A DNA stretch of 32,000 nt from Methanothermobacter thermautotrophicus str. Delta H (GCF_000008645.1 NC_000916.1:210001-242000), one strand, 5' to 3'. Counted from the first letter of the stretch, positions 4,221-22,372 are shown. A program made the numbers and translations. Notes: generated by a model not told the origin, from the sequence alone.

Positions 4221-6290
4221 TTATTTTTTCTGGTTCAGTACCATCATGACCTCTGACATGAATTCATTCTCCCCCAGACGTTTCATTGTGGCTGCAAGCC
4301 TCTCCCTCTGGGGCTTATCTGCGCAACTCCCGTACACATCCAGGACGGCGTCTATGCAGTCAAGTATTTCACCGGGATCATCAATGCGCATGCTCAGACC
4401 CTCCCTGAGTTCTCTTCCAGCTTTACCGCCAATGTAGAGCACATAACCCTTATCCTTAACCTCCCTTGCGCTGTGCGGACATGATTTTATGCACTTCCCG
4501 CAGCCCACACAGAGGTCATAGCTGGTGTAGGATGTCTCCCCCCTTACGCTGACTGCCTCAACCTTGCAGACCTCTTCACATCTTCCGCAGCCATTGCAGA
4601 GATCCTCAGAGGTTACGGGAAATTCGACACCCACCACTCCAATGTCATGTATCTGGGGCCTCATGCACTTGTTAGGACATCCGCTTACAGCTATCTTGAA
4701 TTTGTAGGGGGCTGGTCTCTCCCTGAACCGTTCCTCGATTGCGGTGCAGATCTCCTCTGTGTCTATGATCCCCGTTCCGCAGTTCTCCTTACCCGGACAT
4801 GCGAGGGTTGCCCTTACAAGGGGGCCCTCTGAACCTGTGAGGAGACCGGCGGAGTTCAGTTCATTGACGGCGTCTTCAACATCAAAGCCATTTATTCCGT
4901 GGAGTTCATAGGATCCCCTGTTGGTGATTTTGATCCTTGCACCGTATTTCTCTGCCACCTGAACGATGTCCATGATTCTGTCGGGGCTGTACCATCCTGC
5001 TGGATGTGCCCTTATCCTTATGAAGTATGTTCCATCAGCCCTCTCTGAGACCCCCGGGTGATCTGAGGTCCAGTAGAAGGATATGTAATCACCGTTTTCT
5101 CTTCTTTTCTCAATTTCCCTTCTGAATCTTTTTAGCTTCAGTTTCCTCAGCCTTTCGATGGCCTCCCTGTCTGCGCCCTCCAGCAGATCCAGGGCCTCCC
5201 TGATTTCAGCACCCCTATCTGTCCTTATTATGACGGTTGAGTACCCATCAGGGCTTCCGGCAGAGCCTATGGAGACGTCTGCAAGTTCAGCATCGAAGTC
5301 CCTGCAGAGCCTGCAGCCATCACAGAGCCCTATCCTGCTGAGTTCAATGGTGCGTTCACCTCCATCGAGATGGACAACCATTTTACCTCTTCGGATGTCG
5401 AACTTTTTGACTTCGCTGATATCAATGCCCTCATCCATGAGTGCCTCCCTGAGGTCAGTGTATTCGAATTTCTCTGTGCAGAAGAGGCCTATGAGGTACC
5501 TTATCTCGGGGAGCTTCACGGGTCTGCCGCTCCTTCCAAGTTCAGGGTCATGCTTTGCAAGGTATGGGAAGTACTGAAGCTTACGCAGTCCATTGATCTG
5601 GCATGGCAGCGCAACAACCGCCACACTCTCAAGGCCAAGTTCTGATGCTGTTTTAAGTGCTTCAAGGGTTGATATGCTGTACTTTGAACCGCTCGTTGCT
5701 TCGAGGTCATCTGTGCTCTGGACAACCAGCGATACTGGTTTCCATTTTTCATGACCCACAACTATGGCGCCGTCTATCCGGTCATTCTCCATGAGGTACC
5801 TCAGGAAGGATGTTACCACTCCACCGTCCTGCCCCCTGGCAGTGCCCCTTCCGTAGAGGATCTCCTCCCTGAAGTTTTCACGTATCCCTATCTGGTATTT
5901 GCCTGATGACACCCGGGGGCATACCTCGAAGCACATCCCGTGACCATTTCTCAGGCATTCCTCTGTTAGTTCGGGTCTGCCATTGAATGTCAGGATGTTG
6001 TTGGGACATATCACTGCACAGGTCCCGCACCTTGCACAGATCCCACCATCGACGATTCCCTCCAGTTTCCATTTTCTGATTGATGGGTACATTCTCGCAA
6101 GTTTTTCGGGGGATCCCATACGTGAAATGGCCTCCAGGATCACATCCTCATTCACGCTGGTTTTTCTGCTGGCTGCTATCGCCTCTGCGCTGTCAAGTAT
6201 ATGTGTTTCCAGTTCACGTGCAACCTCCTCCCTCTCCTCAGGGGGCATCCTTCTGGTCACAGCTGCTATGAATTCATCAACTTTATTCAT
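4221..6290 (-). CDS. fsr: F420-dependent sulfite reductase-like fusion (FrhB/FdhB-type F420 domain + siroheme sulfite/nitrite reductase half) with an extra N-terminal HAAS/DUF1700-like helical module
   Basis: 689 aa. Residues ~1-70 (MNKVDEFIAAVTRRMPPEEREEVARELETHILDS...GSPEKLARMY) resemble the helical module usually encoded next to PadR regulators. Next come ferredoxin Cys clusters (CARCGTCAVICP, CFEVCP) and an FrhB-like core (GQDGGVVTSFL...ALPCQINGL...GLFCTEKF). The C-terminal SiR half follows (TLACPGKENCGTG, AVSGCPNKCMRPQ, CNGCGRCEEVC, CVGCGKCIKSCP). Confidence 0.85.
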   Translation of the reverse strand: MNKVDEFIAAVTRRMPPEEREEVARELETHILDSAEAIAASRKTSVNEDVILEAISRMGSPEKLARMYPSIRKWKLEGIVDGGICARCGTCAVICPNNILTFNGRPELTEECLRNGHGMCFEVCPRVSSGKYQIGIRENFREEILYGRGTARGQDGGVVTSFLRYLMENDRIDGAIVVGHEKWKPVSLVVQSTDDLEATSGSKYSISTLEALKTASELGLESVAVVALPCQINGLRKLQYFPYLAKHDPELGRSGRPVKLPEIRYLIGLFCTEKFEYTDLREALMDEGIDISEVKKFDIRRGKMVVHLDGGERTIELSRIGLCDGCRLCRDFDAELADVSIGSAGSPDGYSTVIIRTDRGAEIREALDLLEGADREAIERLRKLKLKRFRREIEKRRENGDYISFYWTSDHPGVSERADGTYFIRIRAHPAGWYSPDRIMDIVQVAEKYGARIKITNRGSYELHGINGFDVEDAVNELNSAGLLTGSEGPLVRATLACPGKENCGTGIIDTEEICTAIEERFRERPAPYKFKIAVSGCPNKCMRPQIHDIGVVGVEFPVTSEDLCNGCGRCEEVCKVEAVSVRGETSYTSYDLCVGCGKCIKSCPHSAREVKDKGYVLYIGGKAGRELREGLSMRIDDPGEILDCIDAVLDVYGSCADKPQRERLAATMKRLGENEFMSEVMMVLNQKK

Positions 6291-6619
6291 TGATCAACCT
6301 CCGTAAGGTCTTCAAGGGACCTGTTTATTGATCTGAAGAGTTCAAGCCACTTTTTTCTGACTCTCTTCCCGTAATCTGTCACAGTATAGTATTTCCTTGG
6401 TCGTGTGTCGTCCGTGCTCCACCTGCTGCTGAGGATTCCCTCCCCTTCAAGTCTTCTAAGGAGGGGGTATAGGGTTCCTTCCTCGACGCGAAATCCGGAT
6501 TCTTTGAGTTTTTTAACAATTTCGTATCCGTATCTCTCATTTTCAAGTAGACAGATCACTTCAAGCTGTATTGCGCCGCGCCTCAGCTCCCTTTCAAATC
6601 TTTCACAGACACTGCTCAT
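6287..6619 (-). CDS. PadR-family winged-helix transcriptional regulator
   Basis: The sequence ...YGYEIVKKLKESGFRVEEGTLYPLLRRLEGEGILSSRWSTDDTRPRKYYTVTDYGK matches the PadR signature. The likely start is ATG 6619 (MSSVCERF), preceded by GTGAGGGAT; the track start at 6661 would lie inside the promoter. The stop overlaps the fsr-like ATG as ATGA (6287-6290). Confidence 0.9.
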   Translation of the reverse strand: MSSVCERFERELRRGAIQLEVICLLENERYGYEIVKKLKESGFRVEEGTLYPLLRRLEGEGILSSRWSTDDTRPRKYYTVTDYGKRVRKKWLELFRSINRSLEDLTEVDQ

Positions 6620-6642
6620 TGGATGATCCCTCACATGATATG

Positions 6643-6690
6643 GCACATATATGTGCTGCACACAGTACCTTGTACCACACAGTATATAAA
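6643..6690 (-). promoter_or_regulatory. PadR-operon promoter: TATA-like box (6683-6690) plus a perfect 14-bp palindrome gcacatatatgtgc (6643-6656)
   Basis: Read on the minus strand, TTTATATA is followed ~25-30 nt later by the palindrome, about 25 nt upstream of ATG 6619. That geometry fits an autoregulatory operator over the transcription start. Confidence 0.45.
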
Positions 6691-6920: not shown

Positions 6921-7847
6921 TCAGATCCCATTTTTTATTCCTCCAAAGTTCTGGAGGATTTCAATTTCTTCTTCAGATAGTTCAGGGACACCCTTTATGA
7001 TCACAGGTATTTCGCTGATTGGCTTTGCCCTTGTCACATCATTTTGGAGTTTCTGATATACAGCATCTATGGCCCAGCCATAGTTAAGGTCATCTGCTTC
7101 GGTGATCCAGAGGGTGTCGATGTCTGCGTTTCTCGCATTTTTTGTTTTCTCATCCCACATGCTGATGAATAACCTGTCTTCCTGTCTCCATGAGTATTCA
7201 GCATCACCGATTATACCCACAACCTCCTTTACACCATCCTCAAGGAACTTTGAGTGACCGCAGACGCGGCAGACCACGAACTGGCCCTCCCGGGTGTGGA
7301 TTTTCTTTGGTCTGAAGAGGTCCCTCCCGCATATCAGTGTCCCGTAATTATCCTTCAGGGGCCTCTGAGCCTTCTTCAGTTTCTCAATGGCCTTCCTGGT
7401 AGCTACCCTGACAGTTTCATGGGGGTCGTTGAGGGCTTCCCTCAGTGCATCAAGGACCACGGCGTCCCCTGTCTCTCCAAGGTAATCTGCGGCCCTGGCC
7501 CTCACCTCTGGATCAGAGGAGTCCCTGAGGTATCCAGTGATCTTTTTAATTACATCCCCGTATTCAGGGCTCTCAGGGTCAAGTCCGTCCCTCAAGCCAT
7601 TCAGGGCGATCATATCACCATTTATGGGCGGCACTGTTTTGGCGGAAGCATGGGTTCCGGGATGCTCCTGCTGATCAGGGGAGCCTGAAATACCTACCAA
7701 GAACAATAAGAGAACAATGATGGCTATCAGGGCCAGATAACCCCACACACCTATCCATGATATTATTAGATAGGATACAAAAAGGATTACAATCAGAAAT
7801 AGACAGCCAGCGCAGGTATCCTCTCCTTCCATAGACACCACCCTCAA
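6921..7847 (-). CDS. membrane-anchored HEAT-repeat protein with Zn-ribbon-like CxxC pair and unknown C-terminal domain
   Basis: 308 aa with two N-terminal TM helices. HEAT/PBS-lyase-type repeats are present (DPEVRARAADYLGETGDAVVLDALREALNDPHETVRVATRKAIEKL). These are followed by ICGRD...VCRVCGH. An alternative start is ATG 7832. Confidence 0.7.
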   Translation of the reverse strand: MRVVSMEGEDTCAGCLFLIVILFVSYLIISWIGVWGYLALIAIIVLLLFLVGISGSPDQQEHPGTHASAKTVPPINGDMIALNGLRDGLDPESPEYGDVIKKITGYLRDSSDPEVRARAADYLGETGDAVVLDALREALNDPHETVRVATRKAIEKLKKAQRPLKDNYGTLICGRDLFRPKKIHTREGQFVVCRVCGHSKFLEDGVKEVVGIIGDAEYSWRQEDRLFISMWDEKTKNARNADIDTLWITEADDLNYGWAIDAVYQKLQNDVTRAKPISEIPVIIKGVPELSEEEIEILQNFGGIKNGI

Positions 7848-7954: not shown

Positions 7955-8908
7955 GTGGTTCAGTTAATTTATGGTGATTCTATGAGTGGACTTAAATTCT
8001 CGCCGGTTGAGTTTGAAAGGGAGATTCAGGCAAGGGAGATGGCATTATCGGGTATAGCCAGTTCAAGGACCAGGATTGAGGGTCTGAAGTCGGAGATACT
8101 GAGAAACCTGGATGAAATTCCTGATGGGGCATGGAAGAGGTCTCCTGAAATTGCGGGGGTGAAATCCTGGATTAATGGGGCCACGGATGTATATATCGAC
8201 AGCACGATGAACAGCAACGAACTCCAGAAAATTGAGAGTGACCTCAAACGTACTGAGAAGATGGCCAGGGAACTGCTGGGGACCGTGGTCGATATAAAGG
8301 TTAAGGCCAGAAGGGAAAGGAGGGTCATGTTAAAACTTGAGAGTATCAATGCAGGATTTAATTGGAAAAAGGACCTTCTTGAGAAGTGGAAGTCTTCGGA
8401 TTCAGAGAGGTTCAGGGAGAAGATTGAGAGGGCCATGGAGGCCGTGAAAAGGGGGGACTTCAGCGGGGCCGAAACCAGGATTCCAGGTCTTGAAGATGAA
8501 CTGAGAGACCTCATCGAGGAAGCCGAGAAACTCGAATCAAACGACAGGATGCGCAGGCATGTTCTCTCTTCCGTTAAAGAGGTCGCTGAAAGGATGGGCT
8601 GGAAGGAAGTTTCAGAACCATACCTTGAGGATGATAAGGACCCATCCAGCCCCCTCATATATGAGCTGAAATCATATTCCGCGGGAAAGATGCGCTTTTC
8701 ACTTACCATGGACAGAATAGATGTTGAATCACCATTTTCAGCTGAAGATGGAGCCTGTTATGAACAGTTCGACAGATTCTCAGAGAAACTCCAGGAATAT
8801 GGTATCCGGACAAAATTCGAAGGGAACCAGGGAGGACCCAGGAATAAACCAGTCTTAAAGGAGAAGAAAGCAAAGAGGCTTCCAGAAAGTCGCATGAGAA
8901 GGATATGA
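7955..8908 (+). CDS. coiled-coil protein, unknown function (cluster gene 1)
   Basis: 317 aa, rich in charged and heptad-like helical sequence, with a small C-terminal mixed domain. An alternative start is ATG 7982, preceded by GGTGAT. I recognised no catalytic motif. Confidence 0.7.
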   Translation: MVQLIYGDSMSGLKFSPVEFEREIQAREMALSGIASSRTRIEGLKSEILRNLDEIPDGAWKRSPEIAGVKSWINGATDVYIDSTMNSNELQKIESDLKRTEKMARELLGTVVDIKVKARRERRVMLKLESINAGFNWKKDLLEKWKSSDSERFREKIERAMEAVKRGDFSGAETRIPGLEDELRDLIEEAEKLESNDRMRRHVLSSVKEVAERMGWKEVSEPYLEDDKDPSSPLIYELKSYSAGKMRFSLTMDRIDVESPFSAEDGACYEQFDRFSEKLQEYGIRTKFEGNQGGPRNKPVLKEKKAKRLPESRMRRI

Positions 8909-8923
8909 TGGAGATGTTGATCC

Positions 8924-10774
8924 ATGGCAGTATGGCAGGATAACCTTAAAAGACTGCTGAATCAGAAAGAGGTACTCATAATCCACGGAAACATAAGGGA
9001 CACCGCATACCTCACCGAGGAAGGAAACCTCGTCAGGGGCCTCACAGACCTTATCAACAGGACCGGCAGGGAACTTGGATACGATAAGACAGTGAGCTGG
9101 GGTTCATTCTTTGACCATGAAGGGAGGGGCCACTCCCCCATGTGGTCACTTGAAAGGATCACACCACTCAATGGGGACCAGCCAGAGATAAGGGAAACCG
9201 AAAGCCAGGACAGAGTCAGTGACGTACTCCACAGATGGCTGGAGGACGAAATAACCTCCATTGATGAGAAAAAGATCTTTATTATAAATTACATCGACAA
9301 GATCACAGGCTACGCTCCAGATGGAATGTACTCTGAACCCACAGCAGAACTTGTGACGCTCATACAGAAGATAATAGAGAACATATCTGAAAACAACCGC
9401 CTCATAATGATCGCCCTCAGGGACACGATGATCCCGGTTGAGTACTATACGAACTCGCCCCGTGTAGCAGTGATGGAGATACCCCTCCCTGACAGAGCAG
9501 AGAGACACCTTTACTATTCCACAACACTGGCCTCAGCAAGCATCCCATCCGATCAGATAGACTTACTCTCCAACATCACAGAGGGCCTCTACATGAAGGA
9601 CCTCGAAAACATCCTCAGCGACGTCCTGGAAGAAATTGATGAGAACCAGGAAGTCTCCTCTTCAATGCTGAGAAAAATAGTTAACAGGTACCGTATAGGT
9701 ACCGAAGAGGATCCATGGAGCAGGATACCACTCACAGGGCCTCCAAAGGGGCTTCTGGACTCGGCAGAGAACTGGTTTCTGGAGAGGGTTGTCGGACAGG
9801 ATCATGCGGTCAGGGAGATAGTGAATGCAATAAAGAAGGCACGTTCAGGTGTCGTGGGCCTTTCATCGGGGGGACAGTCAAAACCAAAGGCAACGTTCTT
9901 CTTCGCAGGGCCTACAGGTGTTGGTAAAACATTCCTGGCCAAAAAACTGGCAGAGTACCTGTTTGATACGGAGGAAGCATTTTTAAGGTTTGACATGAGT
10001 GAATTCAAGGAAGAGCACACAGTATCAAAGCTCATAGGTTCTCCTCCAGGTTATGTTGGATATGAACAGGGAGGACAGCTCACCAACGCCATAAAGAACA
10101 GACCATTCTCGGTCATCCTCTTTGATGAGATCGAAAAGGCTCACCCCAAGATAATGGATATATTCCTTCAGATCCTTGATGATGGACGCCTCACAGACAG
10201 CAGGGGACAGACGGTCTTCTTCACAGAGAGCGTGATAATATTCACATCCAACATCGGGACCAGAACCGTGGACAGCAGGGGAAACACCACATCTGAACAG
10301 AGGAAACTTGATGAAATAATAAATGACAGCGATCTCTCTGACTCTGAAAGGGAGAGAAGGGTGAGGGAACACTTCACGCGCAGTGTTAGAGAGTTCTTCA
10401 TGCATGAGATATCAAGAAGAGAACTTCTTAACAGGATAGGCTCACATATAATAGCCTTCAACTACCTGAAAAAATCAGATTACCAGGTGAACATAATTGA
10501 AAACAAACTCAAGGACATTTCAGAGAACTTCCGCGACAAATTCGCAGGCAGGGGGCACCGGCTCCACCTCTCCGGGGAATTAACTGGATATTTCCTTGAG
10601 AAGTATGGAGATTCAATATCAGAGTTCGGGGGCAGAGGTCTTGTAAATGCCCTTGAAGATGAAATAGGGAACATAGTGGCTGACCAGCTGCTCCTTGCAG
10701 AGGAGAGGGGAATGTCAGATATAAATTTCGAAGTATATGTTGATGGGGATGTAATCAGATGCCGGAGATCATGA
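8924..10774 (+). CDS. tandem AAA+ ATPase: degenerate N-terminal AAA-like half + ClpA/ClpB D2-type active half with ClpB_D2-small-like C-terminus (cluster gene 2)
   Basis: Walker A GPTGVGKT is at 9908-9931 and Walker B VILFDEIEKA at ~10115-10141. Clp-D2 hallmarks are present: LRFDMSEFKEEHTVSKLIGSPPGYVGYEQGGQLT and DGRLTDSRGQTV..IIFTSN. The N-terminal half has HGNIRDT where a P-loop would sit, so there is no GK[ST]. Confidence 0.85.
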   Translation: MAVWQDNLKRLLNQKEVLIIHGNIRDTAYLTEEGNLVRGLTDLINRTGRELGYDKTVSWGSFFDHEGRGHSPMWSLERITPLNGDQPEIRETESQDRVSDVLHRWLEDEITSIDEKKIFIINYIDKITGYAPDGMYSEPTAELVTLIQKIIENISENNRLIMIALRDTMIPVEYYTNSPRVAVMEIPLPDRAERHLYYSTTLASASIPSDQIDLLSNITEGLYMKDLENILSDVLEEIDENQEVSSSMLRKIVNRYRIGTEEDPWSRIPLTGPPKGLLDSAENWFLERVVGQDHAVREIVNAIKKARSGVVGLSSGGQSKPKATFFFAGPTGVGKTFLAKKLAEYLFDTEEAFLRFDMSEFKEEHTVSKLIGSPPGYVGYEQGGQLTNAIKNRPFSVILFDEIEKAHPKIMDIFLQILDDGRLTDSRGQTVFFTESVIIFTSNIGTRTVDSRGNTTSEQRKLDEIINDSDLSDSERERRVREHFTRSVREFFMHEISRRELLNRIGSHIIAFNYLKKSDYQVNIIENKLKDISENFRDKFAGRGHRLHLSGELTGYFLEKYGDSISEFGGRGLVNALEDEIGNIVADQLLLAEERGMSDINFEVYVDGDVIRCRRS

Positions 10775-11826
10775 ACCTTTACTGTGAGGTGAACCTGACA
10801 ACGCCCCTGGTCCTTGTGCTTGAGCCATCACCGGTCCTCTGGGAGGATATAATGAAGGTTTCAGCTGAAGTTATCGATTCCTTCCCGGGGAGGGTTAACA
10901 GGGTCTACTTCCCTGGCCAGAGGGAACACGAAGCCATCAGAACCTCCGGGGACCTCCGGAGAGATGGTCCGCGATGTCTCAGCAGGGGCAGGAACAGACC
11001 CCTTCTAATAAACCCGGTCCTTGAGAAACTCAATGAGGAAAAATTCACAGGTATCATAATCCTTGTTTCATCACGGGTCCCCATTGATATTGAGGACTGG
11101 GAGGGTACGGATGTCCCTGAGAGGCTGGTCTTCATCAACATGGGTGATGGGGACATTGAAGGCCCCTACAGGGTTATCGGCAGATCAAACATCAACCTCC
11201 AGATAGCTCCCCTCCTAAACAATGAGCCTACCGAGGTTTTTGTTTCCGGTGATGGCTTTGTCCCGTTGCGTTACAGTGTTGAGCCATTCAGATCATCAGA
11301 GATAGTGTTCAGGGATGGGGACTTCCTCCTGAATATTGAACCATCATCTGAGCCTTTAAAAATCCACCTTGCAGCAATCTGTAAGGACAGAGTTCCAGAA
11401 CTCAATATAAGACGTCAGAGGGGGTCACTGACAGAGAGGGTAGGTTTTAAGGAGGAAAGGCCCTGGTTTGATCAGAAATGGAATAAGATCCCTGATGATC
11501 TGAGGGACATCATCAGATCCGCCACAGAGAAAAGGGACTTCAAATGCCCCAGCTGCGGTGAAAAACACGCCTTTGATACCATGACATGCCCCTCCGGGGA
11601 CCTGATTTTAAGGGGACTGCCCGCAGGCAGATGCATCCTCTTCAGGGGAGATGAATACATTTCACTGGCAGATGCCCATGCATATCCCCTGGAGGATGGG
11701 AAGATAATAACCGCGGAGGGTAAGATTTACCGTCTGAAGGATGATGGTGGATGGGAGTACCTGAAGGACGTGGAACCATACGAGAGGGTTGATGATGATC
11801 TATTCGCATTATTCTATAGTATTTGA
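10759..11826 (+). CDS. degenerate vWA-like domain protein with C-terminal Zn-ribbon (cluster gene 3)
   Basis: ATG 10771 overlaps the upstream stop as ATGA (10771-10774). The strand pattern LVLVLEPSPV...GRNRPLLINPVLEKL...GIIILVSSRVPID resembles a vWA fold with the MIDAS DxSxS replaced by EPSPV. A CPSCGEKHAFDTMTCPSGD Zn-ribbon follows. The domain call is by eye only. Confidence 0.6.
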   Translation: MPEIMNLYCEVNLTTPLVLVLEPSPVLWEDIMKVSAEVIDSFPGRVNRVYFPGQREHEAIRTSGDLRRDGPRCLSRGRNRPLLINPVLEKLNEEKFTGIIILVSSRVPIDIEDWEGTDVPERLVFINMGDGDIEGPYRVIGRSNINLQIAPLLNNEPTEVFVSGDGFVPLRYSVEPFRSSEIVFRDGDFLLNIEPSSEPLKIHLAAICKDRVPELNIRRQRGSLTERVGFKEERPWFDQKWNKIPDDLRDIIRSATEKRDFKCPSCGEKHAFDTMTCPSGDLILRGLPAGRCILFRGDEYISLADAHAYPLEDGKIITAEGKIYRLKDDGGWEYLKDVEPYERVDDDLFALFYSI

Positions 11827-12390
11827 TCGAACAGGATTTCCATTGATCCAGCTGGACAGCTGGGATCATTCCATCGGCCTGTTCCCTGTCAGCAAGTACC
11901 AGTTTGAACGTTTCCTTGTGGATGATGAGGGCTCTGACTACACCGATGAGTGGTACAGGGGGGTCCTGGAATTGAATCCCCGCAGGAGCTGAGGAACCCG
12001 GGTGATAGGGTATGGGAGTTATTCATCACGGGTCTGGATCTTGATGTTATTGAGGACTTCCTCGGCTACCTCGGACCTGAATACAGACTGCCCACCCTGG
12101 ATGAATGGAAGGCCCTTCTTGAACTATCTGAGGGTATAGCTGAAGTATCCCCTGCTCTTAAAATGATCTGCAATGGTAGATCCCCGGAGCCGGTTCTTCA
12201 CTGGCTGGAAGCCGGTCTCTGTCCCCTTATGAGGGAGGGAATTTTTGAGAGGATCCATGGAATTGAGAATAGGGTCGCTGGAAAACCCTTTCACAGTCTT
12301 CTCCCAAATACATGGGCCCCAGAAGAACTCAAGGAGGTTAAAATGGACATGGTTCAGGGCATGATTGGATTCAGGGTTGTAAGGGGATGA
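11789..12390 (+). pseudogene. minimal FGE-sulfatase (SUMF1/'FGS')-like domain protein, split by one frame break (cluster gene 4)
   Basis: Two collinear ORFs, 11789..11992 in frame 2 and 11950..12390 in frame 1. Together they carry PVSKYQFERFL, YRLPTLDEWKALLE (compare RLPTEAEWE) and the terminal IGFRVVRG, all typical FGE-sulfatase landmarks. The break lies between 11950 and 11992, near G6 (11958-11963) and C4 (11978-11981). Confidence 0.6.
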
Positions 12391-12510
12391 TGGTGGTGTG
12401 TCCGTGTGAATTCTGCAGTGGGTGCTGAATTATTTATGGGGGATGATGGTGTATCTCTACGTCCTGGTTTAGGAGGTACTGAATCTGTACTGGAATCATG
12501 GAGGTATATT

Positions 12511-13119
12511 ATGGGTAAACTGAGGGTTGGCAGGTTTCTTATATCCTCAAGGGTTAATGGTCCTGGAAGAAGGTTTGTCATATGGTTTCAGGGGTGTCCC
12601 ATCCGCTGCAGGGGGTGTCTGAATCCGGAGTTCCATGATGAGGATGGCGGCCATCTCATTGAAACTGCCCGGCTGGTTGATATGATCAGGGATCTCAGGG
12701 ATGAAATAGAGGGGGTGACCTTCACCGGTGGCGAACCCCTCGCCCAGGCCATGGAGCTGGTGAAGCTTGCCGGGGCTGTTAAGTCGATGGGCCTCACAGT
12801 GGTATGCTTCACAGGATATGAAATGGATGAAATCCTTAAAGGGAACATAGAGGGCGGGCTCGAGCTCCTTGAATTTGTAGATGTGCTCATAGACGGCCCT
12901 TACATTGAGGAAAAGAGTGCGCCGTTGCTCTGGCGTGGAAGCACAAATCAGGATGTTTATTTTCTTACAGAACGCTATGCTGAATTCAGGGACAGGGTGA
13001 TGGCCTGTTCTGAAATGGAAGCTGAACTCAAAGTAGGTGCAGATGGTGTTTACATGACCGGAATCTTTGATGTTGAATTCTGGGAGGAACTCAGAAGGAG
13101 GCTGGGTGATGGATCTTAG
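12511..13119 (+). CDS. NrdG/PflA-type radical-SAM activating-enzyme homologue (cluster gene 5)
   Basis: VNGPGRRFVIWFQGCPIRCRGCLNPE contains the Cx3Cx2C cluster at 12595-12618. FTGGEPL, CFTGYEMDEIL and VDVLIDGPYIEEKSAPLLWRGSTNQ are collinear with class III RNR activase NrdG. The probable start is ATG 12511 after GGAGGT; the track ORF starts at 12406. Confidence 0.85.
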   Translation: MGKLRVGRFLISSRVNGPGRRFVIWFQGCPIRCRGCLNPEFHDEDGGHLIETARLVDMIRDLRDEIEGVTFTGGEPLAQAMELVKLAGAVKSMGLTVVCFTGYEMDEILKGNIEGGLELLEFVDVLIDGPYIEEKSAPLLWRGSTNQDVYFLTERYAEFRDRVMACSEMEAELKVGADGVYMTGIFDVEFWEELRRRLGDGS

Positions 13120-14122
13120 ATGTCCCTACTGCCTGAATGAGACCAGACCTGAACTCAAACCGGGGATCGGCTACTGCTGCAGGGAATGTCAGGAGGCACT
13201 CCCAAAGGATTATGTTGACCCCCTTAACTCAAGGGCCAGGATAGGTCTTGTCGGATTCACGGGTCACGGAAAGACGGTTTATCTTACAAGCCTCTTTTAT
13301 ACCCTGAGGGTCCTTTCAAACAGGGATATATGGAGGAACTTCTCATGGCGCACCTGTGATGACCACACCCATAAAATAAAATATTCAGATGTCAGGAAAT
13401 TTGAAAACTCAAGGCTTCCAGCGAGCACACCTGAAAATTTTCCCAGACCCGCCCTCATACATCTGCAGAATGTTCCATCCATGGGTGACATCTTCCTCAG
13501 CTTCTATGATACGGCGGGAAGGGTTTATGAAAGCGCCGAAAAGATAACCGATATGGGAAGATTCGTTGCCCATGCCGACACGGTGTTCTTTCTCATAAGC
13601 CTCAGTGAGAGCGGCCTTGGTGAGTGTGATATGGGTGATGTGAGTTTTGAAATGGAGCGTCTCCTTGATATATACATAAGGGGGGTCTATGAGAAGATGC
13701 ATGTTGACCTTTCAGATAAGCAGGAAATGGTTGTGCTTCTGACAAAGGCCGATGAGATTGACATCCTCCCTGAGGACCTCCATAAATTTTTAAACGAATC
13801 TTCATGTAACTGGTGGATGAATGATGACCTGGAGGCCAGATTCAGTGCCCTTGATAACTATTCTGAGAGGATAAGGGAATGGCTGAGAAGTGAGGGCTGT
13901 GGAGGATTTGTTAATCTGGCTGAAAACAATTTTAAAGGTGTTAAGTATACACTGATCTCATCAACAGGTGCCAGTCCAGTGGGGGATACCCTGGTCACGA
14001 AACTTGAACCGGAGCACCCAAAGGGGGTCATCAATCCACTCGTCTTTGCAATGAGGAGCGCATGCTCCCGTGAATCAGCACAGGGTGTCAGGAGTTTTAT
14101 TGGCAAAATCAGGAGGAGGTAG
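13109..14122 (+). CDS. Zn-ribbon + TRAFAC-class P-loop GTPase (cluster gene 6)
   Basis: The N-terminus CPYC...CCRECQ is a Zn-ribbon. G1 GFTGHGKT is at 13253-13276, G3 DTAG at 13508-13519 and G4 TKAD at 13742-13753. The probable start is ATG 13109, 8 nt after GGAGG, overlapping the radical-SAM stop; the track start is 13067. Confidence 0.8.
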   Translation: MDLRCPYCLNETRPELKPGIGYCCRECQEALPKDYVDPLNSRARIGLVGFTGHGKTVYLTSLFYTLRVLSNRDIWRNFSWRTCDDHTHKIKYSDVRKFENSRLPASTPENFPRPALIHLQNVPSMGDIFLSFYDTAGRVYESAEKITDMGRFVAHADTVFFLISLSESGLGECDMGDVSFEMERLLDIYIRGVYEKMHVDLSDKQEMVVLLTKADEIDILPEDLHKFLNESSCNWWMNDDLEARFSALDNYSERIREWLRSEGCGGFVNLAENNFKGVKYTLISSTGASPVGDTLVTKLEPEHPKGVINPLVFAMRSACSRESAQGVRSFIGKIRRR

Positions 14123-15622
14123 GTGTTCATGGAAATATACCAGTTTGTATACACCAAGGTGCCACCTGAAGAATCTCCATGGAATATAAGGGATTTTCAC
14201 ACAGTCTTCTATCCTGTGGATCTTATTTCAAGGGAAGACCTTTATGAAATGGAGAGAATGATACACAAGCCACAGATAGATGGCTTTAGAGATAAATTAA
14301 CGGTTTTTTACAGGAAGATAGATGATATGGATTATCTTGCAATCCTTTACCTCACTGACCTTCCTGAGGAGAGGGATGTCTTTGGGAGGGGAGGCCTCTT
14401 CCTGTGCCATGGATTTTTATTCCCGCCTGAAATCTGGATGATGGCTCAAACACCCCTTGAACTCTTTGATATCGTGAAAGGCCATGTATTTAATGGGATC
14501 GAAGACCTTTTAAACTCAGGAATCGTTGACAGGAATAGCGGTAACATTGAGGCTATAGAGATTTCAGGTTATTCTCCCCCCGGGGATATGCGCCCCCCAC
14601 TGTCCGATGACCTTAAACTGAAGATAACATCATACCTTTTTAAGATGGCTTCAGGGATCAGGGACTGCCCACCTCTGCTTTTAGCCGGTGAACCCTCTGA
14701 TGTATCAGAACTGCTGGATGAGGTTCTCTTCTACATCCCGGATGAACTGAAGGTCAACCTTGGATGGGATTCAGCCTTTGATGGAGGCAGCCTCTACCAT
14801 TATCCCCTTAAAATACTCGGATTCCAGGAGGAAATGCCCTATGGAGGGAACCCTGTTTCTGTTGACCTGTATAACCGAACAGTTGATTGCCCGGGCGAAT
14901 CAGCAGGGCTTTTACATCCCGTTTCAACCTATGAGAGATGGCTGGAGAACTGTGATGAAAGAGTTTCAAGGGAGGATATCAATGCAGCCTACCGGCTGTC
15001 GCTCCTGGTTGATTCCATGGAGCCACCCTCCTCAGTTGAGGAGGTAATGCCCCAGCTGGAAAACTTTTCTTACATCAACAGGGACCCCATTGAGGGGCAG
15101 TTCAGGAGAAAATTCCATGAAGTCTTTGGCATGACCCTCACTGATCCTGATTTACCTCCGGCGACCATGCTGAAGTTCCTCATTGAGGGCGCATCATGTG
15201 ATTCCATGGCGGGTTTCATTGAGTCACTGGTTCTTGATGGTTATCTCACTGAGGAGGACATAAAACTTCCAGGGGAGGTCACAGAGAGGAGCAGGATTCT
15301 GATGACCATTCAGAGGTTATGGGATGGTGCTGATATCACTGACGAAATCATGGAATCTGATTCTGAAGAACGCCGCCATATATTCGCATATCTAATCGGA
15401 ACCGGACTTTTGATGAAAAATGAATCACTTAAAGACTTATTGAGGGATAATGAGGATTTTAACGCTTTACTGGAGGAGAGGGAGGATCTTTTTGATATTT
15501 TAAATAACTCTGGATTCTCTGTATCTGGAAGTGAGTCCGCAGATGATCCTGAAGATGGATCTGACATCATAAATCTGAATAAAGTGAAGATGGTAATATC
15601 AGGGTTATTCAGGAGGCACTGA
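14123..15622 (+). CDS. large unknown protein, possible GTPase-associated (GAP1-like) partner (cluster gene 7)
   Basis: 499 aa, abutting the GTPase stop (14120-14122) with an AGGAGGAGG SD; an ATG is at 14129. The N-terminal YQFVYTKV... and ...RDVFGRGGLFLCHGFLFP resemble my recollection of GAP1-N-type domains, but that family assignment is unverified. The C-terminus is acidic and helical. Confidence 0.7.
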   Translation: MFMEIYQFVYTKVPPEESPWNIRDFHTVFYPVDLISREDLYEMERMIHKPQIDGFRDKLTVFYRKIDDMDYLAILYLTDLPEERDVFGRGGLFLCHGFLFPPEIWMMAQTPLELFDIVKGHVFNGIEDLLNSGIVDRNSGNIEAIEISGYSPPGDMRPPLSDDLKLKITSYLFKMASGIRDCPPLLLAGEPSDVSELLDEVLFYIPDELKVNLGWDSAFDGGSLYHYPLKILGFQEEMPYGGNPVSVDLYNRTVDCPGESAGLLHPVSTYERWLENCDERVSREDINAAYRLSLLVDSMEPPSSVEEVMPQLENFSYINRDPIEGQFRRKFHEVFGMTLTDPDLPPATMLKFLIEGASCDSMAGFIESLVLDGYLTEEDIKLPGEVTERSRILMTIQRLWDGADITDEIMESDSEERRHIFAYLIGTGLLMKNESLKDLLRDNEDFNALLEEREDLFDILNNSGFSVSGSESADDPEDGSDIINLNKVKMVISGLFRRH

Positions 15623-21024: not shown

Positions 21025-21144
21025 ATGGTTTACTGTCGTGAATGCGGGGAGCTTAATCGTGATGGGGCAAACTACTGTCTTAAATGTGGCAGCCCCTCAG
21101 GGGGAGTGAAGGGGAGGATACCAGGCCTCAACCGGCCCGGATGA
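21025..21144 (+). CDS. 39-aa zinc-ribbon mini-protein, or the N-terminal Zn-ribbon of the next gene separated by a frame break
   Basis: My translation is MVYCRECGELNRDGANYCLKCGSPSGGVKGRIPGLNRPG, with CxxC-x12-CxxC. Its TGA (21142-21144) overlaps ATG 21141 of the next ORF as ATGA. Confidence 0.5.
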   Translation: MVYCRECGELNRDGANYCLKCGSPSGGVKGRIPGLNRPG

Positions 21145-22343
21145 AGGCGGGTCCAAGGACCATAACACTCACGGCCAGTGACGACACTGAAAACCTGGGC
21201 AGACTGACCCCTGAGATCCTCAGGATGGACAATGAAACACTCATGAAATGCAACGATGAGATAAAGGAGCTCGTGAAGAAAAGGAGGATCAGAAGAGGCG
21301 ACTTTGAGGGGTCCATGGAGGAACTCATGGCTGAGATAAGATCAAGACTCGAGGCACTGAGTGGGGAGCTCAGGGCACTGAGTCCGCAGCTTCTAAGGGT
21401 CACGGTGGAGATCGACAGGAGTAAACCTGATGTGAAGATCACAACATCCCTGGATAAGGACCGCATGGAAGGCTACCTTGAGAAGATTAAGAGCAGGCAG
21501 CTCTCAGACCAGTCCCCGGCAGCCCCATCATGGAGGGACCTCTGCCCTGTCTGCAGGGAAGCACCATTAACACCATTCCCAAAAAGGAGGGTCCCTGGAA
21601 GGTCTAAGAGGAATATGCGCTGCAGTAACTGCGGCGCAGTCTTCATTTACAAGGGAAATGGGTACCTTCTCAGCAGGGTCTCAAACAGGAACACCAGGGC
21701 CTGGCGCCTGTACGGTGGGAAGACACTCACAGAGGAGGAATGGACCAGGATAGCAAATGGCGGAGTATCCAATGAACTCCAGAGGGAGATCCAGAGAAAG
21801 AGGGATATTGAAGAGAGAAGGAGGGACATTGAAGGATGGCTTAAAAGTGCAGCAGAGGGGAATGTCACATTCAGAGAGCCCCAAACTCCCATAATACTCA
21901 GGAAGAACGAGAGGGCGGTCCTCGTACTCCACAACATTGACCTCTACGAACCGAGGGCCGTTAGAAGGACTGCCGGCGGATACGGGGGCCCCACCATAAG
22001 GGTGTCAAAGAATCTCTCATTCAGGATGGGGGCCCTCAATGCCATAAGCGAATCCCGTGACGAACTCCGGAGGATAGACACCGGTACACTGACCCTGACG
22101 ACACGGAGGATGATATTCACAGGGACAAAGAGGACAACGAACATAGACCTCAGGAAGGTCCTAGCCATCCAGCCCTACACCAATGGCATAGCGGTCCAGA
22201 GGGAGAACAAGAAGAGAACTGAACACTTCCTCAACACGGAAAAAACACTGCTGAACATCACCCACTCCGGGAGGACCCACACAGTCCCCGCAGATGGTGC
22301 GGTGATGAAGGCGGTGATTGAGGGACTTATAAGGAAGCTCTGA
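21141..22343 (+). CDS. coiled-coil / internal Zn-ribbon / C-terminal bacterial-PH (YokE-like) domain protein
   Basis: The track ORF 21084..22343 has its frame opening at 21084, and ATG 21141 gives MKAGPRTITL... Motifs include CPVCREAP...CSNCGAVF. The C-terminal pattern IDTGTLTLTTRRMIFTGTKRTTNIDLRKVLAIQPYTNGIAVQ is typical of bPH-type domains (by eye). Confidence 0.65.
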   Translation: MKAGPRTITLTASDDTENLGRLTPEILRMDNETLMKCNDEIKELVKKRRIRRGDFEGSMEELMAEIRSRLEALSGELRALSPQLLRVTVEIDRSKPDVKITTSLDKDRMEGYLEKIKSRQLSDQSPAAPSWRDLCPVCREAPLTPFPKRRVPGRSKRNMRCSNCGAVFIYKGNGYLLSRVSNRNTRAWRLYGGKTLTEEEWTRIANGGVSNELQREIQRKRDIEERRRDIEGWLKSAAEGNVTFREPQTPIILRKNERAVLVLHNIDLYEPRAVRRTAGGYGGPTIRVSKNLSFRMGALNAISESRDELRRIDTGTLTLTTRRMIFTGTKRTTNIDLRKVLAIQPYTNGIAVQRENKKRTEHFLNTEKTLLNITHSGRTHTVPADGAVMKAVIEGLIRKL

Positions 22344-22372
22344 CCAAAAAATAACTCAGAGGAGAGAATAAC

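Follow-up and report, generated by a model that had tools for sequence, protein, structure and literature searches.

The window, the whole 32,000-nt stretch of Methanothermobacter thermautotrophicus DNA that was analysed, contains an ATPase gene with a Clp-like C-terminal half and a degenerate N-terminal half, followed by a vWA-like gene and an FGE-sulfatase-like (FGS) gene, and the question that it raises is what such a trio does in a methanogen. The most likely answer is that it serves as the switch arm of a putative anti-invader system rather than as a heat-shock chaperone. With slightly better than even confidence, we place the cassette to which the trio belongs (Table 1) among the predicted GTPase-centric conflict systems, as a new variant built around a Clp ATPase and a vWA protein, and these genes are its predicted switch arm against invaders.

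Table 1. Features of the cassette, in positions of the 32,000-nt window.
Feature	Position	Strand	Remarks
HEAT-repeat protein	6921-7847	-	308 aa; Pfam HEAT_2, E 1e-9; divergent from the cassette
Coiled-coil protein A	7982-8908	+	308 aa from ATG 7982; mechanical ORF from GTG 7955
ATPase, N-terminal half	8924-9703	+	aa 1-260; AAA+-like, without P-loop
ATPase, C-terminal half	9704-10774	+	complete Clp/Hsp100 D2 motor and D2-small domain
vWA / β-sandwich / CCHC zinc knuckle / C-terminal β domain protein	10759-11826	+	355 aa
FGE-sulfatase (FGS, C-type-lectin fold) gene	11795-12390	+	one-base deletion splits the gene at ~11991
NrdG-like radical-SAM protein	12511-13119	+	202 aa; ORF from 12406; start at 12511 likely, by comparison with orthologues
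DO-GTPase2-like GTPase	13109-14122	+	ORF from 13067
GAP1-N2-type partner protein	14123-15622	+	499 aa

The ORF at 8924-10774 encodes the 616-aa ATPase, and its C-terminal half contains the intact Clp D2 module that the sequence-only reading had recognized. The motifs GPTGVGKT, ILFDEIEKA, and GSPPGYVGYEQGG are present, residues 320-495 match Pfam AAA_2 (PF07724) with an E-value of 5e-54 (183 bits against a cut-off of 27), and the best sequence match in the PDB is the ClpB D2 structure 4lj4 (E 4e-63), with local identity to ClpB D2 of about 60%. Across 53 family members, the Walker A residues K335 and T336, the Walker B residues D401 and E402, the sensor-1 residue N443, and the arginine finger R498 are invariant, and the pore-loop residue Y377 and sensor-2 residue R571 are at least 90% conserved. 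From these residues, the second tier is predicted to have everything that a threading motor needs. A motor of the MoxR clade (AAA_3 or AAA_5/CbbQ type) was considered and rejected, with the match to AAA_5 (E 3.5e-10) reflecting only generic P-loop similarity and AAA_2/Clp being the best family.

The N-terminal ~260 residues had been described as AAA-like but without a P-loop, and this description is confirmed. The sequence HGNIRDT occupies residues 21-27 (nt 8984-9004), immediately 3' of the first β-strand, and within it G22, N23, R25, and D26 are invariant across the family; the Walker B position of this half reads YIDK and the lid junction IPLPDxxxR. Because the P-loop is replaced by the invariant G-N-x-R-D loop, the first tier probably cannot bind nucleotide in the canonical manner. 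In the predicted model, the order of the secondary structure elements fits an AAA β-α-β core followed by a helical lid, the latter consisting of four short helices (residues 191-257), and the model of the whole ATPase aligns in both tiers to two-ring ClpC/ClpB chains over about 650 columns. A profile of the N-terminal half finds p97-D2, Vps4, and spastin, with their classical AAA lids (E 3e-4), and AAA ATPases make up 59 of 60 among the matches listed. With hhalign, the half is in register with classical AAA domains (Cdc48, PAN, and similar) over 167 columns (E 8e-5, probability 61%), and no sequence similarity is found to the ClpB/ClpA D1 profile (probability 0.1%). The domain is restricted to this ATPase family, occurring in 52 representative clusters that are nearly all ~600-aa full-length proteins or fragments thereof. 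Together, the predicted model and the moderate profile scores argue with moderate strength, short of proof, that the half is AAA-derived.

One explanation for such a protein is that it is the general Hsp100/ClpB-type disaggregase of the methanogen, a housekeeping stress chaperone that has lost D1 activity, as might be expected of the only Clp/Hsp100-family gene in the genome, with an intact D2 motor and pore loop and with the database name of Clp ATP-binding subunit. However, the ClpB equivalog model (TIGR03346/NF008118) scores the ATPase at 270.8 bits against a cut-off of 1232.1, with only model positions 512-844, which are D2, being aligned, and the protein falls below every NCBIfam equivalog cut-off. 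In a D2 tree, a branch with 100/100 support separates all 20 family members from the four ClpB, three ClpC-like, ClpA, ClpV, and one further Clp sequence that were included. There is no Pfam Clp_N match in the ATPase, and its model contains no long coiled coil equivalent to the M-domain, the element that couples ClpB to DnaK. The family is also missing from five of the nine Methanothermobacter species and from all 52 other Methanobacteriales searched, it coexists in its bacterial carriers with canonical ClpB, ClpC, ClpA, or ClpV, and it is always found inside the same cassette, all of which makes a housekeeping disaggregase highly improbable. A partnership with ClpP was likewise rejected: none of the 53 members has the ClpP-docking loop ([LIVM]-G-[FL] or [LIVM]G[FLM]) in the segment that joins sensor 1 to the helix after it, and neither ClpP (PF00574) nor a second Clp ATPase was found in the 99.9%-complete genome. 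By tree and profile the ATPase is a distinct Clp/Hsp100 family and, as the sequence-only reading had anticipated, not of the ClpB type. It is similar to ClpB/Hsp104, ClpA/ClpC, and ClpV in its D2 module and two-tier predicted structure, but differs in having no N-domain, M-domain, or ClpP loop, and in having a D1 without Walker A.

Comparators with a similar arrangement are CLPB/Skd3 and the Dodola protein DolB, which likewise have one active Clp D2 motor after a non-catalytic N-terminal region, though that region differs, being here an AAA-like pseudo-ATPase and not ankyrin repeats. The PADLOC DolB model matches residues 283-489 of the ATPase (E 1e-21) and PDC-M37B matches with an E-value of 4e-32, in both cases through the shared D2 core only. 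Identity with Dodola was rejected, since the DolB match is partial and no DolA (DUF6414) or PDC-M37A partner is present among the cassette neighbours.

The 355-aa protein encoded by the next ORF (10759-11826) had been proposed to be ATGA-coupled to the ATPase and to begin with a vWA-like fold. The coupling holds for the second ATG at 10771, which gives a 351-aa protein and an ATGA overlap with the ATPase stop, but not for the first ATG, which overlaps the ATPase gene by 16 nt. The fold is supported by the AF2 model (pLDDT 88.4), for which the top Foldseek matches are the ArnB paralogue VWA2 (5a8j), SpaC (6m3y), Sec23/24, integrin beta, and TRAP, with the top vWA-type matches having E-values of 1e-6 to 3e-4 and probabilities of 0.95-1.0; Pfam gives no vWA match for this protein. 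The domain order is vWA, β-sandwich (residues 157-229), CCHC zinc knuckle, and C-terminal β domain. In the case of the Sulfolobus ArnB/VWA2 proteins and the Sec23/24 trunk, there is the same succession of vWA then β-sandwich, with a zinc finger also in Sec23/24, yet these best structural matches share only 8-13% sequence identity with the window protein, differ from it in how many extra domains they have and how these are ordered, and belong to archaellum regulation and to the COPII coat, respectively. The MIDAS position of the window protein reads E-P-S-P-V and aligns exactly to the D-x-S-x-S of bacterial orthologues, which agrees with the substitution noted from the sequence. D-x-S-x-S is kept in 12 of 13 bacterial orthologues outside the degenerate subclade, the exception being D-A-A-R-T in locus L020. 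Because the degeneracy is common to the whole subclade of the window protein, which includes bacteria with otherwise intact cassettes, MIDAS loss is an old, tolerated state.

The other members of the cassette are less uniform in how well they match known families. Protein A, which has a Shine-Dalgarno-like GGTGA upstream of its ATG at 7982 and orthologues in nearly all loci, has a conserved N-terminal M-S-G-x-K-x-S (in 21 of the 23 distinct loci with an A ORF complete at the N-terminus) and an α/β domain at its C-terminal end, and it gives no Pfam, PHROG, or PDB matches beyond coiled-coil noise. The HEAT protein is a recurrent component, found next to the module in L001, L007, L003, L074, L076, and L010, and the 308-aa window protein matches the module-flanking HEAT proteins of L003 by blastp at 4e-34. 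The radical-SAM protein matches Pfam Fer4_12 (E 9e-35) and scores 115 bits with TIGR02491 NrdG against a cut-off of 126. The window GTPase reaches 25.3 bits with PF19993, under the cut-off of 27, and its orthologues in L021 (35.2) and L012 (29.5) are above it. The 499-aa protein is orthologous to proteins of L005, L009, and L010 (blastp 1e-18 to 2e-11), and these score 24.7-37.5 bits with PF20013 GAP1-N2 against a cut-off of 24; the L009 protein narrowly misses GAP1-M (23.9 bits, cut-off 24).

About 30 loci in unrelated taxa have this gene set in common, a recurrence far beyond chance. Protein A, ATPase, vWA, and FGS are found as a group in four of nine Methanothermobacter species and in bacteria of more than 12 phyla, usually accompanied by the NrdG-like radical-SAM, DO-GTPase2, and GAP1-N2 genes, and sometimes by HEAT proteins only. 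The vWA gene is present in 24 and the FGS gene in 24 of the 28 non-redundant ATPase-carrying loci, and these two genes still lie side by side or overlap where the ATPase is elsewhere (L076); this pair, the most tightly linked of the cassette, has its counterpart in the vWA-FGS fusions of MoxR-vWA conflict systems. A minimal module of A, ATPase, vWA, FGS, and HEAT occurs in L003 and L074, with no radical-SAM, GTPase, or GAP1 gene within 10 kb, and these two kinds of loci lend support to the suggestion that the AAA+/vWA trio is a module. The nearest relatives of the ATPase are bacterial, with 53-63% identity in the N-domain. Some loci have PemK toxin or DUF559 genes inserted within the cassette; in L074 it is flanked by IS elements, in L005 there are type III CRISPR genes nearby, and in L001 its neighbour is a HepT/MNT pair. 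Between two Methanothermobacter species, the adaptor and partner proteins are 51-55% identical compared with 83% for the motor, and judged by these values they evolve much faster than it. The patchy distribution, the insertions, the CRISPR and HepT/MNT neighbours, and the fast-evolving partners are hallmarks of an accessory or conflict element. Against a conflict role, no classical toxin or nuclease effector is found in the cassette, and several loci lie among ordinary metabolic genes. By these comparisons, the trio makes up the core of a cassette that is conserved, that moves horizontally, and that the methanogen has acquired, with mobility being deduced only from phylogenetic patchiness and insertions, since searches of IMG/VR viral contigs and PLSDB plasmids gave no member of the ATPase family.

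The closest known relatives of the full cassette are the DO-GTPase/GAP1 systems, which are predicted conflict systems (Kaur, Burroughs, Iyer & Aravind, eLife 2020; PMC7159879). The GAP1-N2 systems described there have the same DO-GTPase2 gene followed immediately by a GAP1-N2 gene, and they share with the cassette the vWA and FGS domains, the superstructure-forming HEAT and coiled-coil parts, and a chaperone-type NTPase; the HSP70 and tubulin/vWA "themes" of that paper resemble the chaperone-type NTPase and vWA content of the cassette, and vWA-FGS fusions are described there in the related predicted MoxR-vWA conflict systems. A Clp-type ATPase and an NrdG-like radical-SAM protein set the cassette apart, neither being mentioned for these systems in the text of PMC7159879 or in one of its supplements. 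The cassette also differs from the GAP1-N2 systems compared in that the copy here is archaeal, in that its Clp/vWA/FGS/coiled-coil/HEAT part can stand without the GTPase and GAP1 genes, and in that the hallmark FNIII-repeat protein was not detected, with no fn3 match in any cassette protein scanned. No experimental support for an immune role was found in the literature for the DO-GTPase/GAP1 systems or the ATPase family.

In the MoxR-vWA ternary systems, as in RavA-ViaA, CbbQ-CbbO, and NorQ-NorD, an AAA+ gene is likewise coupled to a vWA gene, and the intact MIDAS of the bacterial cassette members is also a feature of MoxR-vWA systems. The vWA of those systems is fused to FGS, whereas here FGS is a separate, overlapping gene, and in place of a single-tier MoxR there is a Clp/Hsp100 D2 motor of the HCLR clade that has a threading pore loop and is preceded by an additional, dead AAA tier. 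None of the third components of MoxR-vWA ternary systems (VMAP, iSTAND, FtsH) is found in the cassette.

Known AAA+/vWA pairs of the maturation type are CbbQ-CbbO, NorQ-NorD, CoxD-CoxE, and BchI-BchD, and an AAA+ gene beside a vWA gene with an intact MIDAS is the signature of such activases, with BchD also carrying a dead AAA+ module. It is conceivable that the pair is a dedicated enzyme maturation or activation machine that remodels a client for cofactor or radical installation by the NrdG-like enzyme, with the GTPase helping, and this would suit the gene order, the intact bacterial MIDAS, the affinity of the radical-SAM protein to glycyl-radical activases, which are its closest relatives, and the position of several loci amid ordinary metabolic genes. 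What makes it doubtful is that the cassette flanks differ in every locus with no conserved client enzyme adjacent, that neither the radical-SAM nor the GTPase gene is part of the minimal module, that the motor, with its threading pore loop, is of the Clp and not the MoxR type, that the GTPase is a DO-GTPase2 with a GAP1 partner and not a G3E metallochaperone, and that the distribution is patchy, with toxin-antitoxin and IS elements inserted.

If the cassette is instead a switch arm of a GTPase-centric conflict system, the ATPase would act as a hexamer in which the D2 ring is the working part and the dead ring a platform for assembly and docking. Recruitment of the ATPase would fall to the vWA protein, by a MIDAS contact that needs metal in the bacterial clade and by a metal-independent contact in the Methanothermobacter clade, and the FGS and HEAT proteins would recognize the trigger, presumably an invader component. 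The D2 motor might then remodel or unfold a partner, a role for which the coiled-coil protein A is the strongest candidate, as its conserved N-terminal MSGxKxS peptide resembles an engagement tag. In the full cassette, this remodelling would switch on an output consisting of the DO-GTPase2/GAP1-N2 pair and the NrdG-like radical-SAM enzyme. A bolder proposal, which we consider unlikely, is that protein A, the half-dead Clp motor, vWA, FGS, and HEAT together make up a novel type of immune machine that needs no further parts, with an unfoldase as effector or signal-releaser. In such a machine, a vWA-FGS-HEAT sensor would capture an invader protein that the D2 ring then unfolds, or the motor would unfold protein A, gripped at its MSGxKxS N-terminus, and thereby release a signal; the GTPase, GAP1, and radical-SAM genes would be an optional second stage, and the module would have passed from bacteria to thermophilic methanogens.

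For the switch arm proposed in the preferred reading, one consideration in this genome is the state of the FGS gene, which had been taken for a minimal FGE-sulfatase domain. The FGS assignment comes from the orthologues, with PF03781 scoring 35.9 bits in L005 (cut-off 23.3) and 18.6-19.7, below the cut-off, in L001, L003, and L010, though the gene is not minimal: the 146-aa ORF at 11950-12390, which itself gives no PF03781 match, is only the C-terminal part of a gene for ~200 aa whose start, in a different frame, lies at 11795. A tblastn search with an intact 198-aa orthologue matches the window in two frames, the N-terminal part at 11795-11989 and the C-terminal part from ~12010 to 12390 in the frame of the 146-aa ORF, and identity to the L001 protein is 66% for one piece and 72% for the other. 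In the DNA alignment, one G at ~11991 is missing from the window, L068, L069, and L072, and present in L070, L071, and L007. The deletion is real, being common to several independent assemblies, and it represents strain-level pseudogenisation within the cassette; with the FGS gene broken, the sensing arm is probably impaired in this genome. This break, found in the window and three other assemblies, together with the degenerate MIDAS, could mean that the cassette here no longer functions and is decaying as a relic. Such a relic also seems unlikely, as the remaining seven genes are intact, the MIDAS loss is common to the whole subclade, strains that have the FGS deletion and strains that lack it share an ATPase with 100% identity, and intact FGS alleles persist in sister strains.

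The C-terminal half of the 616-aa ATPase is an intact Clp/Hsp100 D2 module, as the sequence-only reading had stated (Pfam AAA_2, E 5e-54; E 4e-63 against crystal structures of ClpB D2). Among 53 aligned full-length relatives (44-94% identical), the Walker A Lys and Thr, the Walker B Asp-Glu, the pore-loop Tyr of GYVG, the sensor-1 Asn, the Arg finger (SRPELLNR), and the sensor-2 Arg (GGRG) are all invariant or at least 90% conserved, and because these catalytic and pore residues are conserved the D2 half should be a working threading motor. The protein nevertheless misses the NCBIfam equivalog cut-offs by a wide margin (271 bits versus 1232 for ClpB, 238 versus 993 for ClpA, and 215 versus 885 for ClpV), with the alignments to all three models confined to D2, and neither a Clp_N domain nor an M-domain coiled coil is present in the Pfam search or the AF2 model. 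In a maximum-likelihood tree of D2, which is unrooted and so speaks to separation and not to direction, 20 family members lie on one side of a long branch with 100/100 support, and four ClpB, three ClpC-like, one ClpA, one ClpV, and one other Clp sequence lie on the other. The scores, the architecture, and the tree rule out membership of the ClpB, ClpA, or ClpV families, which bears out the initial view that this is no ClpB-type disaggregase. A role as a ClpP-coupled protease is likewise ruled out, since the [LIVM]G[FLM] tripeptide found at the ClpP-docking-loop region of ClpA, ClpC, and ClpX occurs in none of the 53 family members, extending the earlier observation on the single protein, and the complete 1,751,377-bp single-contig genome contains no ClpP and no second Clp-type ATPase. 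That this sole Clp-type ATPase acts as a housekeeping disaggregase we regard as highly improbable; in five bacterial genomes the family coexists with canonical Clp ATPases identified by NCBIfam. Membership of the Dodola or PDC-M37 systems was also rejected, as the PADLOC matches are limited to the D2 core and the partner gene is absent.

The N-terminal 260 aa of the ATPase have no Pfam match, and among 1.8 billion representative proteins this N-domain is limited to 52 clusters, whose members are nearly always proteins with this ~600-aa architecture or pieces of such proteins. In an AF2 model based on the alignment of 53 relatives (pLDDT 86, pTM 0.75), the predicted elements of the N-half follow the AAA order of beta-1, loop, and helix, then beta-2, an insertion, and a helix, then beta-3 and a helix, beta-4, and beta-5, with a four-helix lid after them. 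With Foldseek, the entire model matches two-ring ClpC, ClpB, and ClpA chains (570-600 residues) over ~650 columns at E 1e-31 to 1e-27, but the TM-scores of ~0.5 were computed on the entire model and may be carried mostly by D2 alone, and independent sequence evidence was for this reason sought for the N-half. A profile of the N-domain matches p97-D2, Vps4, spastin, NSF, and PAN near the IPLPDxxxR strand-lid junction (best E 3e-4), with classical AAA ATPases accounting for 59 of the 60 matches listed, and it also picks up PAN-like genes in two related genomes. Alignment by hhalign to classical AAA domains from this genome and its relatives runs in register over 167 columns (E 8e-5, probability 61%), with the post-P-loop helix, the strands bearing Walker B and sensor 1, and the beta-5 and lid segment all in correspondence. 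The corresponding hhalign comparison with ClpB and ClpA D1 gave no similarity (probability 0.1%), and descent from Clp D1 is accordingly not part of the claim: the N-half is AAA-like by profile and predicted fold, as had been proposed. Where a P-loop would be expected there is instead a loop of 17 residues, starting with the HGNIRDT noted from the sequence, in which G22, N23, R25, and D26 are invariant in the family alignment, and the Walker-B position reads YIDK, with D125 invariant and K126 at least 90% conserved. This strong conservation suggests a non-catalytic pocket kept for a structural or ligand-binding role, rather than simple decay.

The 355-aa protein encoded next has no match in Pfam, NCBIfam, PADLOC, or PHROG, a single-sequence search finds four relatives only, and its bacterial orthologues (22-25% identity) were reached only through gene context. 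Its AF2 model from a nine-sequence alignment (pLDDT 88, pTM 0.78) is predicted to open with an alpha/beta domain (aa 1-155) and to close with a beta domain, between which lie a beta-sandwich (~157-229), a short helix, and a zinc-knuckle region. All of its best Foldseek matches are vWA proteins, led by the Sulfolobus ArnB paralogue VWA2 (E 1.4e-6) and including the pilus adhesin SpaC, Sec23/Sec24, integrin beta subunits, and TRAP (probability 0.95-1.0), so that the predicted structure agrees with the suggestion of a vWA-like fold. The zinc site C-x2-C-x3-H-x6-C (C263, C266, H270, C277) is kept in nearly all members. At the metal site (MIDAS), 12 bacterial orthologues have D-x-S-x-S, typically D-A-S-E-S, and the bacterial locus L020 has D-A-A-R-T, whereas the window protein and its whole subclade, comprising Methanothermobacter and MAGs of Kryptonia, Acidobacteriota, and proteobacteria, have E-P-S-P-V or similar followed directly by a three-residue deletion. 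The changed MIDAS was thus read correctly and is no local accident, because the entire subclade is degenerate relative to the bacterial orthologues. A helical protein of ~520-570 aa with weak HEAT/ARM similarity is found in 13 of 13 loci outside this subclade (L005, L009, L010, L019-L026, L028, and L030) and in none of the 10 MIDAS-degenerate loci, which have HEAT_2-type proteins instead; the comparison group without the helical protein consisted of the window, L001, L003, L007, and L011-L017. As this split separates two lineages, it is an association and not independent evidence.

The genes of the cassette on the + strand are close-packed or overlap one another.

Cassette genes of the window and their predicted products
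Gene	Coordinates	Strand	Features
HEAT-repeat gene	6921-7847		Divergent from cassette
Coiled-coil protein A	7982-8908	+	
ATPase, 616 aa	8924-10774	+	Clp/Hsp100 D2 and P-loop-less N-half
vWA protein, 355 aa	10759-11826	+	Assigned by predicted structure
FGE-sulfatase-like gene	11795-12390	+	Frame-broken
NrdG-like radical-SAM gene	12511-13119	+	
DO-GTPase2-like gene	13109-14122	+	
GAP1-N2-type partner, 499 aa	14123-15622	+	

The mechanical ORFs of the radical-SAM gene (12406-13119) and the GTPase gene (13067-14122) probably begin too far upstream, and the starts in the table (~12511 and ~13109) come from orthologue alignments and sister-strain gene calls. For protein A the mechanical ORF is 7955-8908, and the start is placed at the ATG at 7982, which is preceded by GGTGA, because a conserved N-terminal M-S-G-x-K-x-S fixes the position; this peptide is present in 21 of the 23 distinct loci with an N-terminally complete A ORF, across archaea and many bacterial phyla. 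Protein A consists of ~190 aa of coiled coil followed by a conserved alpha/beta domain, and has no informative Pfam, PHROG, or PDB match. As the conserved peptide is short and terminal, and as its coiled-coil carrier constantly accompanies an unfoldase, it is plausible that MSGxKxS is an engagement tag for the unfoldase, though it may alternatively be a modification site.

The third gene of the trio was described as a minimal FGE-sulfatase (FGS) domain, and the domain identity is supported through its orthologues, but the minimal size is not, since the 146-aa ORF is a frameshift fragment. In a tblastn search, the uninterrupted 198-aa orthologue aligns to two reading frames, at 72% identity over 11795-11989 and at 66% over 12010-12384, and DNA alignment shows that one G at ~11991 is absent from the window and from three other assemblies, two complete genomes and one metagenome contig, whose ATPases are 100% identical. 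The G is present and the gene uninterrupted, at no more than ~200 aa (gene calls of 182, 204, and 198 aa), in two strains with a 100% identical ATPase and in a 94%-identity relative. A sequencing artefact of an old genome is thereby ruled out, as the same G is lost from the three further assemblies and an intact allele occurs in closely related strains whose ATPase is identical, and from these alignments the break is judged real and recent, a strain polymorphism rather than an error. That the system is a relic in this strain, a reading compatible with the conflict-system function favoured below, is quite unlikely in our estimation. The Pfam FGE-sulfatase score is above the cut-off for the orthologue in the bacterial locus L005 (35.9 bits) and slightly below it for others (18.6-19.7 bits), and the intact product is a predicted non-catalytic FGS domain of C-type-lectin fold as described by Kaur et al. 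2020 (PMC7159879), where FGS domains are fused to vWA proteins in conflict systems. The cassette arrangement agrees with these fusions, since its vWA and FGS genes are constantly adjacent and mostly overlapping, even where they lie apart from the ATPase (L017, L023, L029, and L076).

Component HMMs run on six-frame ORFs of all fetched loci show that the vWA and FGS genes are each present in 24 of 28 non-redundant ATPase-bearing loci. Locus L016 has a partial vWA match ended by the contig end; of the remaining three, L018 and L031 are ended by a contig end or have a truncated ATPase copy, and L027 has 2.5 kb downstream of the ATPase with neither gene. L031:6676-8276, on a second contig of the Aminicenantes MAG that bears L023, holds a radical-SAM gene and, after it, an ORF with similarity to the ATPase N-domain alone, possibly a truncated second ATPase copy. 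Protein A is found in nearly all loci, and the radical-SAM, DO-GTPase2, and GAP1-N2 genes in most. Because orthologues of the 499-aa window protein match GAP1-N2 and those of the GTPase match DO-GTPase2, the cassette is assigned, on domain matches, to the GTPase-centric systems of GAP1-N2 type that PMC7159879 describes. It differs from the systems described there in adding a Clp-type ATPase and an NrdG-like radical-SAM enzyme, neither of which is mentioned in the text and one supplement of that work, and the FNIII protein that is a hallmark of those systems was undetected among the cassette proteins; no description of a Clp/vWA/radical-SAM variant was found in the open-access literature. In two kinds of loci, L003/L004 and L074, protein A, the ATPase, vWA, FGS, and HEAT occur alone within +/-10 kb, without the radical-SAM, GTPase, and GAP1 genes, which supports the proposal that the trio is a separable arm; in the D2 tree, their ATPases rank with the closest relatives that the window protein has outside Methanothermobacter. 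An enzyme-maturation machine, against which the absence of the radical-SAM gene from this minimal module speaks, seems unlikely to us.

We lean toward the cassette being a conflict-system switch built on the ATPase/vWA/FGS/HEAT arm. The ATPase would assemble as a hexamer in which the P-loop-less dead tier provides a stable ring and docking surface and substrate is threaded by the D2 tier. An adaptor role would fall to the vWA protein, and the FGS and HEAT proteins would provide recognition and a scaffold. The threshold for the output enzyme would then be set when protein A or the GTPase-GAP1 complex is remodelled. Nucleotide-inert tiers serve as assembly tiers elsewhere, as in NSF D2 and p97 D1. 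To our knowledge, every well-studied AAA+/vWA pair is built on a single-tier MoxR motor, whereas the motor that appears to be coupled to the vWA adaptor in this cassette is a threading one of Clp/Hsp100 type and includes a conserved pseudo-ATPase tier. If this is correct, the idea of a chaperone plus co-chaperone as a threshold switch would reach another motor class. The predicted GTPase-centric conflict systems also gain a tractable entry point through a motor with known mutational handles (Walker A/B and pore loop), and the sole "Clp" gene in this model methanogen is read anew, and not as a heat-shock disaggregase. Natural comparisons are at hand in the strains with broken and intact FGS and in the MIDAS-intact and MIDAS-lost clades.

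Several observations point to an accessory, probably mobile character. Of nine species representatives of Methanothermobacter, four have the ATPase family, which was absent from the 52 other Methanobacteriales searched; outside the genus the closest relatives come from bacteria, with 53-63% identity in the N-domain, and the bacterial hosts belong to more than 12 phyla. The motor is 83% identical when two Methanothermobacter species are compared, versus 51-55% for A, the vWA protein, and GAP1. Two unrelated bacterial loci have PemK-type toxin-antitoxin pairs and a gene resembling a DUF559 endonuclease inserted into the cassette, between its genes (L010:5598-6156, L010:13808-14215, and L075:13046-13562). 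L005 has type III CRISPR/CARF genes upstream, and L001 has a HepT/MNT pair after its cassette. The N-domain was found neither on IMG/VR contigs by pattern scan nor on PLSDB plasmids by tblastn. IS transposases flank the minimal module of L074, and upstream of it on the 590-kb contig (L074:1802-7040) are genes for a CbbQ-like MoxR ATPase, DUF3150, a CobT-like vWA protein, and RadC/JAB, a set that is typical of integrative elements, with the IS transposases downstream.

Elsewhere in the window, 4221-6661 on the - strand encodes a protein of the F420-dependent sulfite-reductase type whose N-terminal domain is HAAS, and overlaps a PadR-family regulator gene, and a 677-aa ORF in 21084-25007 corresponds to RNA polymerase subunit A' domains 1-5 without the start of domain 1, with other ORFs upstream.
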